A stretch of 64,000 nt of DNA from Chrysomallon squamiferum. Taxonomy: Eukaryota; Animalia; Mollusca. Positions 32,624 to 53,705 of the stretch are shown in pieces. The notes under the pieces are model-generated. The model worked only from the letters and a program-made list of their open reading frames with translations, was not told the origin of the DNA and searched no databases. Numbering within the stretch: position 1 is the stretch's first letter; each line of letters opens with the position of its first letter. A program made the translations under genes and the position numbers. Location of the stretch: the NCBI GenBank assembly GCA_012295275.1, contig CM022665.1, positions 39,866,001 through 39,930,000 of the forward strand, given 5' to 3'.

Positions 32624-33030
32624 TTAATTAGCTCGACAGACAGACATACAGACAAACAGACAAATATATTATACTAAATAAATAAATAATAATAATAATA
32701 ACAATAACGATGTATAATAATCTGACAAAATTAACATTAATAATAAAGCAATTTTAAATGACTACTGCTAAATGTCATTTAAAAAAAAAAAAAAAGCAAA
32801 AATATTAATAGATGGAGTCTGGATTATTCTAAACGTCATTAATAATAAACAGTAATCAGGATCTGATTGTAAAATAATATGGGCGGCTGGCATGGATGAC
32901 ATTCAATATAATTTTTCTATCTACGCCCTATTTATGTGCACGTACACACACATCTATACATTTACATAAATATGGATATGTGTGTATATATATCTTCAAA
33001 TAAAACAAAATAATTTAAAATATATATGTA

Positions 33031-44823: not shown

Positions 44824-46197
44824 ATGACGTTGTTCTGGGACACGTTTTCTGGCGATGTTGAGACGGAGGCTTTCAGATCATCGGTAGAAGTTTCAGACTC
44901 CGAAGTTTCAATCTCAGCAGATTTCCTTCCCTTTAATAAAATAAACCATTCAGTTTACAAACACATCTTGACACCGTCGTCAACTGTAACACACAGAAAT
45001 GAAACATTTTTCAACACGACGACGACGACGACAACGACAACAAATATGTTGCTGTCAGTCGTATCAAGTTCTGTGCCAGAGATTGTGTACAGTGACGTTA
45101 AAATAAACATGATGGACAAGACGTCATACGGTTTGTTTGGAGAGCTGGAGAGATACAGCGAGCTGTGGATTGCCAAATATCTCAATCTCTATTACCTTTG
45201 GGTTATTTTTCTTTTCGGGTTTTCGGGAAACTTCGCCATTTTTATCACAGTCATCAAAATGAGGCCGCACCGGTCGTACACCGTGTGCATAGCCGCGCTC
45301 GCCGTCGTGAACAACTGCGCGATTATCAGTAAACTTCTCTTTCACCAACTCACTCTCTACGACGTCCCCATCGGTCTCTGGGGCTGCAGGGTCCTCTACT
45401 ACATCGGCAGCTTCTTCACCGCGTACTCGAGCTGGATAATCGTTGCCATGACGCTCGAAAGATTCGTCGCGATTTATTTTCCTCTCAAGGTGATCACCGT
45501 CTGCTCGAGAACCAAGATCATTTTCTTTCTGGGAATAATGGCAACTTTCCTGTTGTTCGCCGACCTGCACTTTTTCTGGACGGCCACAGACACGTTTCAC
45601 CCGGTTTTCAAAGAACACTGCGGCTTCCTACGGCAATATCAGCACTTCATCCAGTACTACTGGTACTGGATGGACGGCTGCATGTACGCCATTGTCCCCT
45701 GCATTCTGTTGCTGATCTTCAACGTCGTCAACATATTCGGGATCAGGCAGTCGTACAAGACACAGAAAGAATTCCTGAAGAACAGAAGTGAACTCATCGT
45801 GGAAAGGTTTCGAGACCAAGGAAAGATAACCATCATGGTCGTCGCTGTGTCCGTACTCTTTCTTCTCCTAGTTATTCCAAACTGCTGTCATTACGTCATC
45901 AAGCCCACGTGGGTCTACACGCCAGTGAGTCACGAGCACGCGGTGTTTTTACTCACAAGAGAAATCATCTTCGTCCTCTCAGACGCCAATCACGGAATTC
46001 AGTTCTTCATCTATTTCGTCATGGCCAAACCATTTCGGCGAGAATTCCTGAACTTCTTCTGTTGCAGAGAAAACAGAAAGCGTGGATCGTCCAGCGCTTG
46101 TTACATGGTGTCTGGGTTTAGACCGTTTAAAAACGTCAAACTGCTCTCTGTGTCTACGATCAGTGTCATAGACATCTCAAAAAGCGCGGATTACTGA
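44824..46197 (+). CDS. Class A (rhodopsin-like) orphan GPCR, FMRFamide/peptide-receptor-like family, uninterrupted CDS, 457 aa
   Basis: Long GC/CpG-rich ORF with first ATG at 44824. Seven hydrophobic segments; TM1 GN, ECL1 W-G-C, TM3 MTLERFVAI, ECL2 Cys, TM5 IVP, TM6 LVIP, TM7 NHGIQFFIY, helix-8 FRREF, C-terminal CC. N-glycosylation sequons (NHS, NET, NTT) in the N-terminus. Confidence 0.93.
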   Translation: MTLFWDTFSGDVETEAFRSSVEVSDSEVSISADFLPFNKINHSVYKHILTPSSTVTHRNETFFNTTTTTTTTTNMLLSVVSSSVPEIVYSDVKINMMDKTSYGLFGELERYSELWIAKYLNLYYLWVIFLFGFSGNFAIFITVIKMRPHRSYTVCIAALAVVNNCAIISKLLFHQLTLYDVPIGLWGCRVLYYIGSFFTAYSSWIIVAMTLERFVAIYFPLKVITVCSRTKIIFFLGIMATFLLFADLHFFWTATDTFHPVFKEHCGFLRQYQHFIQYYWYWMDGCMYAIVPCILLLIFNVVNIFGIRQSYKTQKEFLKNRSELIVERFRDQGKITIMVVAVSVLFLLLVIPNCCHYVIKPTWVYTPVSHEHAVFLLTREIIFVLSDANHGIQFFIYFVMAKPFRREFLNFFCCRENRKRGSSSACYMVSGFRPFKNVKLLSVSTISVIDISKSADY

Positions 46198-50573: not shown

Positions 50574-50627
50574 TCATATTCGAAACTGTAGAAGAAGGAA
50601 GAAGTAGGTGATGTAAAGTCCAGCAAG
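50574..50627 (-). CDS. GRL exon 4 (TM7b, TYFFLLLQF)
   Basis: TTTTCAG acceptor; LAGLYITYFFLLLQFRI followed by TGA. Confidence 0.9.
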   Translation of the reverse strand, partial: LAGLYITYFFLLLQFRI

Positions 50628-51055
50628 CTGAAAATTTAAAAATAGAATAACAATATATATATATATTACAAAAAGAAAGAAAAAGAACAAAAAGCAGAAT
50701 GATTCAAAATATTACTATTATTATTATTATTATTATTATTATTACTGTTACTATTGCTGTTGTTGCGGCTGATGTTGTTGTCACTGTCACTGTCATTACT
50801 GCAGTTGAATAATAATGTTAAGTTACTTCATTACAAATATTTTCACCGTATAAGAAGTACTAATGTAGGTCAGAAAATTGTGTGCTGTAGATATAACGCT
50901 GAACACATCTGCAGTCAAATCAAAATAAAAAAAGAAGAAAAAAGAAAAAAAGAAAGAAAAAAAAAAGAAAGAAAAGAAGAAGAAAAAAAAAAAAAAAAAA
51001 AAAAAAAAAATAAATAAAAAAAATAAAATAGAAAAACAAACAAACGAACGAACAA

Positions 51056-51109
<54 letters not shown>

Positions 51110-51795
51110 TTTACAATAATAATAATATTAAAAAGATGAAAAGAAAGTATCGTGGACAAGAGAAATATTTATTAAATTAAATTACGAGATTAAACCAGTG
51201 AACGTGTGTCTGTACTTACTGTAAGAAGCACTTCTTTGGTTAGAACTAACATCCCAAGCACTGTGAAACCCACTGAAGTACCAGTCAGTTGACTTATAAA
51301 CAGCGTTACCTTTAAACAGAAATTTATTTATTTATTTAACTGTTTGTTTTTGATATCATCTTCAACACGTCATTATCTTGGTAATCATCATCATCATCAT
51401 TATCATCAGCAGAGTTATTGTATTATGCAGCTGCTATTCCTGCTGTTTCTCGTCTTCATTTTAGTTTTTTTTTTTTTTTTTTTTAATCTTGCTTTTCTTC
51501 TTTCTTATCTTCATCGTCGTCAGCATTATCATTATTATTGTTGTTGTCGTTGGTGTCGTCGTTAAATGATAAAAAAAATAAAATAATAATAATAATAAAA
51601 CAAACCTCTAGTGATTGATCGGGAGTTATGTTTGTGTGACGTATTTCAAAAATATGCTCGAGAGGGGCAAGTGCCTGAAAAACAACAAAAGTTGTGATTT
51701 GTATATTTTTTTTTTTTTCATTACATTCAAGAGAATTGTTTGTTTGGATATTATGATACTTGGTTATCTTTAAGGAGCAGAGAAAAACAGAAAGA

Positions 51796-51832
<37 letters not shown>

Positions 51833-51864
51833 TTGTGTGTGTGTATGTATATATATATATACAG

Positions 51865-51914
<50 letters not shown>

Positions 51915-53074
51915 TGTAAAATGACATATAATTTATAACAAAAGAACATTTGTCCATAATCCATTAAAAGACACTTAAACTCAATCACCGACTGCTCTGG
52001 CTTTTTAAAAAAATTTTTTTTTTTTTTTTTTACTATTTACTAATAAAACTCGACACTTACTGCATCGTGTACCAAAGCACAACTCAGAGTGACTGCCACA
52101 ATGGAGATGATATTAACAGACAACCAGAACAAATTCACAATGACTGTGATGAGCTGGACTTTGGCGTACACAAGCTGATACACCATGAAGCACGCCAAAG
52201 GTATGTTAATGGCGTATTCCACCGCCACCAGGAGGCGCACCGATCGGTCCAGGACGGAAACTGCTCTGCACATTTGAAGATGCACTCGCCGCAGCCTGTC
52301 AAAATTAGTCGGAATGGACTTCCCCGCTGTTCTGATTTGCTTCTCCAGGACAAGCGTCAGCTGGTCAAAGCTAGCCTTCATTATGTAACAAGTGACCAAA
52401 ATGAATATAATAGGAAAGACGTAGACCCCTATAGCCACTAAGTGTACAGACACCAGAATGATATCGACTGCGATGGAAGAAGGAAAAGGTCTTATTACAG
52501 TCTCTGCGAACGACTTGTCAGCCACGAACTGAAGATACAAGACCGCAATGGTGTTGAATATTGCCCAAAGCCAGCCGGCCACCGTTCCGATAACAGCAGC
52601 TCTAGAAAGACCTTTCGCGCGATGATCCAGATCATAACATCCAGGGTCGAGATAGATCTCGTTCCACTGTTTGTAAAAGGCGTTAAGATAGGTGGATTTC
52701 TCGCAGGTGATGAACATCACTAAATCGCCAATGGCTACAAGTCCTAACCACACAAAAATGACAATTCTTCCCGGCAGATCGCTGTCGTACGGAGGAATTA
52801 CTACTCCACACCTGGTTAAATCTGCCCACATCAGGATCAAAATAAAGACAGAGTAAAAACGAGATAGGATAACCCAGCCATGTGATTTTCGATCTGTATT
52901 TCGTTGGCCGTTCACTTCCGTCAATGGGCTGACGCTCGTCACGTCGTACACGTCGTGGTAGACGCCAAAGAGTTTCATCGAGAACAGCAACGGCTTCAGA
53001 ATGTCTTGTATCCTTTTTTGATCACACTTTACATTCTCAAGTTCCCCATCTAGTTTCCTTTTACTATCCATCAT
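50574..53074 (-). CDS. Gustatory receptor-like (GRL, 7tm_7 / 7TM ion channel) protein, 408 aa, join(52061..53074,51606..51674,51220..51309,50574..50627)
   Basis: One large exon with multiple TM helices (starts MMDSKRK...LKPLLFSMKLFGVY), then three small phase-0 exons ALAPLEHIFEIRHTNITPDQSLE / VTLFISQLTGTSVGFTVLGMLVLTKEVLLT / LAGLYITYFFLLLQFRI*. Ends in the GR-superfamily TYhhhhhQF motif. All junctions GT-AG. Confidence 0.9.
51220..51309 (-). CDS. GRL exon 3
   Basis: AAG acceptor, 90 nt, LF..QL....VGFTVLG motif typical of the GR/GRL pre-TM7 region, ACA|GTAAGT donor. Confidence 0.88.
51606..51674 (-). CDS. GRL exon 2
   Basis: TTTTTCAG acceptor, 69 nt open in phase 0, GAG|GTTTGT donor. Confidence 0.85.
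52061..53074 (-). CDS. GRL exon 1 (TM1-TM6)
   Basis: first in-frame ATG at 53074; donor GCA|GTAAGT at 52060. Confidence 0.9.
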
Positions 53075-53705
53075 GACTAATAAAACAAAAACAGACTTCC
53101 TAGTTATTCTTACCAATAATGCTTTCGGCAGAACAGCACATACAACAATGACGTCCCCGGAATATAATCCTTTGTCACTGGCCGGTCGTTTCAAACGACG
53201 TCATCATCATAATGTAATCTGGGCGCAAAGAATCTTCTGTCAAATTGTTTTGTTTTTCTTGTATCCGCTAATGGTTTAAAATGCATTAAACCTCAACTAG
53301 AGTATTAAATCAACAGGAAAAACGCATTAAAGGAATTGTTATTTACATTTCTCTTGGGGTGCAACGTACCTTTACAAACAAATATAGCTAAAACGGATTA
53401 AACAATAGAAAACGAGTTCTATGAACTCGGCTGCTTATTTCCGTTAATGGTTTGCAGTATGTTTATAGAAATGGGCTTTTGTAAGAGAGCGGTGTGTTGA
53501 AACGTAAAAACAGTATTGATGTGGTAACACAGAAAGAAAGATATATTACTGACAGACAGAAATACACTACGATAGAGTTAAACAGACACCAAAAGGAATG
53601 AATGATAATTGAAAAGACTGAAAGAAAACAGTGAAACAGATTTGAGGAGAGAGAAAGAGAGAAAAAAACACACAAAGAAATAGAGAATAAAATAACGAGA
53701 AAGAG

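Follow-up and report, generated by a model that had tools for sequence, protein, structure and literature searches.

A four-exon gustatory-receptor-like gene of a probable gastropod, predicted to encode a subunit of a ligand-gated cation channel

We analysed a stretch of 64 kb of DNA (hereafter, the window) and found on its minus strand a four-exon gene with an unbroken gustatory-receptor-like (GRL) reading frame. The protein is a GRL, of probable gastropod origin. By analogy with the insect channels, four such subunits are predicted to assemble into a ligand-gated cation channel, with Q405 and F406 as its gate. We consider it rather probable that the gene encodes such a four-subunit channel and that it serves as a chemical sensor in the animal. 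The window is AT-rich with many simple repeats, like animal DNA. The features of the gene are as follows, P0008 being a full-length abalone relative used throughout the analysis.

53074-52061, minus strand: exon 1, 1014 nt, aa 1-338, an open frame with the N-terminus, the S0 helix, predicted TM1-TM5 and most of TM6 (helices mapped from the P0008 model)
51675..52060, minus strand: intron 1, 386 nt, GTAAGT..TTTCAG, phase 0
51674-51606, minus strand: exon 2, 69 nt, aa 339-361, the end of TM6, a loop and the start of TM7a
51310..51605, minus strand: intron 2, 296 nt, GTTTGT..TTAAAG, phase 0
51309-51220, minus strand: exon 3, 90 nt, aa 362-391, TM7a, the beta-hairpin and the start of TM7b
50628..51219, minus strand: intron 3, 592 nt, GTAAGT..TTTCAG, phase 0
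50627-50574, minus strand: exon 4, 54 nt including the TGA stop, aa 392-408, the pore helix TM7b
50583..50609, minus strand: TM7 signature T398-Y-F-F-L-L-L-Q405-F406, from a six-frame motif scan

All four exon lengths are divisible by three, and the three introns are GT..AG introns in phase 0. The spliced product has 408 aa, and its sole stop is the terminal one. These boundaries coincide exactly with those proposed in an earlier note on this DNA. The note had the protein end in TYFFLLLQF; the motif is indeed present, but the true C-terminus lies two residues further (TYFFLLLQFRI). It had also remarked that the list of open reading frames is limited to the first exon. This is the case, since only exon 1 is visible there, read into intron 1 as 344 aa, and the C-terminus stays hidden. 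A hydropathy scan of the spliced protein gave seven hydrophobic regions. There is no upstream in-frame Met before the next stop, and the start site has the same position in two close relatives. At 53077-53099 (minus strand), a run rich in pyrimidines closes with an AG that is separated from the start codon by two bases; it resembles the acceptor of a 5' untranslated intron. In one sequencing run, which may be the one behind the window itself, two contigs of 134 nt cover positions 52605-52738. One is identical to the window, and the other has seven differences, altering four residues (123, 128, 142 and 147) and introducing no stop; it may represent a divergent allele or a close paralogue. Elsewhere in the window, an intronless ORF of 457 aa (44824-46197, plus strand) encodes a rhodopsin-type GPCR (7tm_1 E 2.7e-13, Srw E 7.6e-12), which could be a neuropeptide-type or a chemosensory receptor. 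It faces the GRL gene across about 4.4 kb, a linkage that may be due to chance.

The splice model was derived from sequence and homology, with independent support of three kinds: an abalone protein, the residues found in relatives at the boundary of intron 1, and the exons of distant loci. The main reference was P0008, a Haliotis rubra protein of 411 aa (LOC124289844, RefSeq) recovered in a profile search, to which exons 2-4 align without a gap (38 of 70 residues identical). By exon, the identity is 103/331 for exon 1, 7/23 for exon 2, 18/30 for exon 3 and 13/17 for exon 4. When the last 75 aa of P0008 were searched with tblastn against the 64 kb window, exon 3 (E 2e-8) and exon 4 (E 2e-4) were recovered, and the next match had E 2.0. 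Exon 2, missed by this search and little conserved relative to P0008, is the least supported of the four. Among 25 stop-free, phase-0 AG..GT candidates, it scores best of those without overlap with exon 3 (28 vs 23), and including it raises the profile score from 266 to 312 bits. Its support comes from its size, its position and this gain of 46 bits. For exon 3, an alternative donor would give an exon of 114 nt with a slightly higher local alignment score (100 vs 95), but it would insert eight residues absent from the full-length relatives.

To survey the boundary of intron 1, we used 273 proteins, 200 of which aligned over residues 325-338. The TM7 motif is absent in 173 of these 200 relatives, and 154 of the 173 have a Val directly after the exon-1 boundary. 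A Val at this place, encoded by a GTN codon, is what results when translation runs on through a phase-0 GT donor; the 173 proteins are not independent, because many come from one metagenome clade. Among the 27 relatives with the motif, 23 have an Ala directly after the boundary, and 23 have a tail of 69-71 residues, compared with 70 in the window protein. Many database relatives thus stop at intron 1.

A scan of metagenomes returned 95 candidate stretches that reduced to four loci, all distant (26-27%); L002, L003 and L004 represent a single locus from three different assemblies. All four have the 69-nt exon in the corresponding position. The 90-nt exon was found in all but L003, and a terminal exon carrying the TM7 motif in L002 and L004. 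The layout of 69-nt and 90-nt exons with all introns in phase 0 is the published ancestral GR/GRL structure, and GRL introns common to arthropods, cnidarians and placozoans are described in PMC5850775. Hence, the ancestral intron architecture claimed in the earlier note matches the published structure and recurs in distant loci. In L001, intron 1 apparently begins with GC rather than GT (position 2126), and exon 1 has a stop and a frame change near position 1709. L003 harbors two tandem copies of exon 1 (1-784 and 1658-2923) that are 85% identical in DNA, the upstream one being frameshifted, and the same locus is seen in L002 and L004. We found no 69/90-nt tail exon in the 873 nt between the two copies, and a single tail set follows. 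It looks like a first exon that was duplicated upstream of a single tail, comparable to the Gr loci of insects that undergo alternative splicing. Finally, we searched the contigs of four runs, three of which are RNA contig sets of another study. No contig spans a junction, which gives no evidence either way on expression.

Several searches place the protein in the GRL family. Against Pfam, exon 1 passes the cut-off of Trehalose_recp (PF06151; 31.6 bits, E 9.2e-8, cut-off 21). Its score for 7tm_7 (PF08395), the family proposed for verification in the earlier note, is below the cut-off (16.2 bits, E 0.0067, cut-off 26.6), whereas the full-length P0008 exceeds it with 45.6 bits and also passes Trehalose_recp. 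Exons 2 and 3 alone matched no relevant Pfam family. Among eight relatives scanned with Pfam, four, including P0008, pass 7tm_7 and two have no match at all. In the ESM Atlas, the top matches, at 0.95, are 7tm_7 or gustatory-receptor clusters. A sequence search of the PDB with exon 1 returned no relevant solved structure; with P0008 it returned Drosophila Gr64a (E 1.4e-5), and with the 148-row family profile it returned Gr64a (E 7e-16), followed by OR28, Gr43a and Orco. GRs and GRLs are described as having about 350-500 aa in PMC7746228, and the window protein, with 408 aa, falls in this range. The same source defines the TM7 motif as (T/S)Yhhhhh(Q/K/E)(F/L/M), and T398-YFFLLL-Q405-F406 matches at all four defined positions. 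The match to PF06151, the Pfam matches of P0008, the TM7 motif and the phylogeny (see below) all agree with the family assignment that had been made from the sequence.

The fold was assessed on a stand-in. The AlphaFold model of P0008, built from an alignment of 148 rows, has a pLDDT of 91.5 and a pTM of 0.89. It consists of seven long helices, TM4-6 among them, with TM7 split into 7a and 7b by a beta-hairpin. Foldseek gave 23 matches to this model at E<=0.001, and among the matches listed all are insect odorant receptors (OR) or GRs. The best is Gr64a (E 6e-9, TM-score 0.70). VIA-align superposed the model on Orco chains with Z 33 and an rmsd of 3.3-3.5 over about 363 residues, and the best unrelated chain reached Z 6.8. 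The model of the window's own exon 1, built from eight rows, is of low confidence (pLDDT 44). Its top eight Foldseek rows are ORs and GRs (best E 0.034), and it has no match at E<=0.001. The resemblance to Orco and GR structures anticipated in the earlier note was thus found for the P0008 model and not, at this threshold, for the window exon-1 model. Since the window's own model is of low confidence, its fold is carried over from P0008, which is 33% identical, and on this stand-in the window protein would have the Orco/GR fold. Going by the superposition on Orco, the N-terminus would lie inside the cell.

To place the gene among its relatives, we built a quick tree of 50 rows, 49 of them hand-picked from 275 proteins and excluding insect sequences. 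The closest proteins to exon 1 are P0001 (57% identical), P0002 of Gigantopelta aegis (52%) and two more at 47%. The window protein forms a clade with the Gigantopelta aegis protein and three further proteins (SH-aLRT 99), and this five-protein clade is nested in a 17-row group holding abalone proteins (SH-aLRT 98). Limpet, bivalve, annelid and hemichordate proteins are placed further out. This bears out the molluscan origin suggested earlier for this DNA, and, judging from this one gene, the DNA probably comes from a gastropod. An 8-row profile of close relatives matched 558 clusters (50% identity) at E<=0.001 and 245 at 1e-10. A second profile matched 142 proteins, with at least 17 named Haliotis entries among the 120 matches listed, 13 of the 17 carrying the TM7 motif. 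Three of the relatives (P0128, P0139 and P0263) have very long matches (1448, 866 and 1091 aa), two of them with several matched stretches, and are possibly fused gene models of tandem GRLs.

The abalone GRLs are the best points of comparison. They include P0008 and proteins of H. asinina and H. cracherodii named 'gustatory receptor family protein 3-like'; some abalone relatives are thus already annotated as gustatory receptors in RefSeq. Most have 407-437 aa, like the window protein, and share its clade in the tree. Their tails align to it without gaps, and TYFFLLLQF is identical in most. They differ in exon 1, where only about 31-33% of the residues are identical. Their names were given automatically, and our literature search found no published function for them. 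We found nine relatives in H. asinina, all from contigs of one and the same length, three of them models lacking the tail. The other six are full-length, 42-78% identical over exon 1 and 70-89% over the tail; since their tails differ, they are separate genes. Such divergence fits a pore that is conserved and a pocket that varies, as judged from the sequences.

The nearest named relative is the Gigantopelta aegis protein (LOC121371614, XP_041353563.1), 52% identical over the whole of exon 1. In contrast with the window protein, it has 348 aa, ends about 12 residues past the exon-1 boundary and lacks TM7, so that it appears to read into intron 1. Five named RefSeq proteins in all (P0002, P0009, P0019, P0020 and P0050) end just past this boundary without TM7. 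These are probably truncated gene models, or first exons sharing the tail of another gene.

Outside arthropods, the GRLs of Nematostella, Trichoplax, sea urchin and spionid annelids belong to the same superfamily as the window protein. GRLs are already on record in Mollusca, according to PMC7746228. Profile matches with the TM7 motif were found in Patella, Lottia, Saccostrea, Ylistrum, Sinanodonta, Owenia, Ptychodera and Glandiceps; these limpet, bivalve, annelid and hemichordate rows are distant, with 22-31% identity to P0008. Insect GRs and ORs share with the window gene the TYhhhhhQF gate motif and three phase-0 introns at the 3' end, and with the P0008 model the split of TM7 by a beta-hairpin. 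The solved GR structures (Drosophila Gr64a 8JME/8ZE0, Gr43a, Bombyx Gr9) and those of ORs and Orco (6C70, 7LIC, 8V00) have the same fold as the P0008 model, with Z 29-33, but the structural alignments have only 9-15% identity. Gr64a is the best structural match, yet this gives no ground to call the window protein a sugar receptor: there is no orthology to insect GRs, so the sugar ligand is not transferable.

How such a channel would work can be drawn from the insect proteins. As described in PMC12635824, four subunits join at a cytosolic anchor and S7b lines the pore; the Phe of the motif blocks the pore, and the neighbouring Gln replaces it upon binding of a ligand in the S1-S6 pocket. By analogy, four subunits of the window protein would meet via a cytosolic anchor made of TM4-6 and TM7a, and four TM7b helices, encoded by exon 4, would line a pore shut by F406. 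A small molecule would bind in an outward pocket of TM1-6, all encoded by exon 1; binding would tilt TM7b, Q405 would replace F406 and cations would flow. In this scheme, the hairpin and most of TM7a would come from exon 3, and the gate Q405/F406 from exon 4. Residues conserved in the family are kept in the window protein, namely R88 (108/143 rows), W109 (130/146), R262 (144/148), Y299 (136/148) and W317 (141/148). R88, W109, Y299 and W317 are first candidates for pocket and coupling residues. R88 and W317 are reminiscent of Arg86 and Trp354 of BmGr9 (PMC12635824). That the protein is a functional ligand-gated channel, as the earlier note proposed, we infer from its family membership and intact gate motif.

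The alternatives differ widely in probability. It is hardly conceivable that the protein belongs to another, unrelated family with seven helices, for example the GPCRs. One weak row of a profile search is an adrenergic receptor (E 0.022), but neither exon 1 nor the scanned relatives match a GPCR family of Pfam, the P0008 model aligns to ORs and GRs with Z 33 versus 6.8 or less to GPCRs, and the TM7 motif and the intron layout are of the GR type. It is also very improbable that the gene is silent or has recently become a pseudogene. Chemoreceptor families do shed pseudogenes, and examples are at hand in the frameshifted exon-1 copy of L003 and in the in-frame stop and frame change of L001. The window gene instead has 408 codons free of stops and frameshifts despite 43% divergence from the nearest relative, its six splice sites are canonical, and the family-conserved residues are kept at 28 of 31 listed columns. 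More weight, within the improbable, goes to a gene organized like Gr28b, in which exons 2-4 would be a tail shared with further large first exons upstream of the window; this would be compatible with either function discussed below. The distant locus with two tandem exon-1 copies before one 69/90/terminal exon set is of this kind, three of the nine H. asinina models are tail-less, and three of the close relatives are found on contigs with the same two lengths. Yet all six frames of the window, which extends 10.9 kb upstream of the gene, hold one exon-1-like segment only, each of the six complete H. asinina genes has its own distinct tail, and gene callers that ignore splicing would be expected to produce database entries without a tail. 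Neither additional first exons nor broken copies turned up in the window when it was searched using three profiles and seven tblastn queries (best stray match E 0.046, near 32827-32961). Hence, the 64 kb hold a single copy of the GRL gene and no array.

The remaining question is what the channel would sense. We favour an external cue, water-borne or acting by contact and read by sensory cells, as a weaker part of the proposed mechanism. This is because the relatives occur in tandem arrays that diverge fast, as is the case for tuning receptors, because among the expanded relatives the exon of the pocket diverges faster than those of the pore, and because a pair of annelid GRLs is reported as expressed in the head region (PMC11730519). 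The same type of channel might instead sense an internal or physical signal, such as a body-fluid metabolite, oxidants or light, or heat, or act in development, which is plausible and, in our view, rather unlikely. Precedents for an internal or physical role are nematode LITE-1 and GUR-3, isoforms of Gr28b and a motoneuron homologue, and anemone and urchin GRLs expressed early suggest roles in development; overall, the non-chemosensory tasks of non-insect homologues include light responses and control of egg-laying in nematodes and patterning in cnidarians (all in PMC7746228). Insect fructose receptors act in the gut and brain (PMC12635824), and the window gene has no neighbour of the same kind in 64 kb. 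Against this, its close relatives have expanded within particular lineages and their pockets diverge, which is a better fit to tuning receptors than to one conserved gene of development, and the external chemical sensor remains our preferred reading. Our literature search, conducted mostly without subscription journals or supplements, which may list molluscan GRLs, found no paper with a ligand, function or channel recording for a molluscan GRL.

Taken alone, the window gene is one more molluscan GRL, in a family known since 2015. Its practical use is to provide a complete and well-supported model of 408 aa with a canonical gate for a clade in which the closest named entry has no pore helix; it also illustrates how often relatives end at intron 1. 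In molluscs, the GRL family is large and has received little study. The window gene or its abalone relatives are a reasonable test case for what non-arthropod GRLs sense, and the window copy offers no advantage over the abalone genes in this respect. More broadly, and only tentatively, it is quite possible that insect-type taste channels form a large and mostly unannotated repertoire in molluscs and annelids, which has escaped notice because gene callers miss the three small exons of the pore, and that the window gene is one tuning receptor of this repertoire, in a vent-snail relative. If true, the gene could serve directly as a clone in the search for the first ligand of a lophotrochozoan GRL, and ionotropic chemosensing of the GR type would not be a speciality of arthropods.
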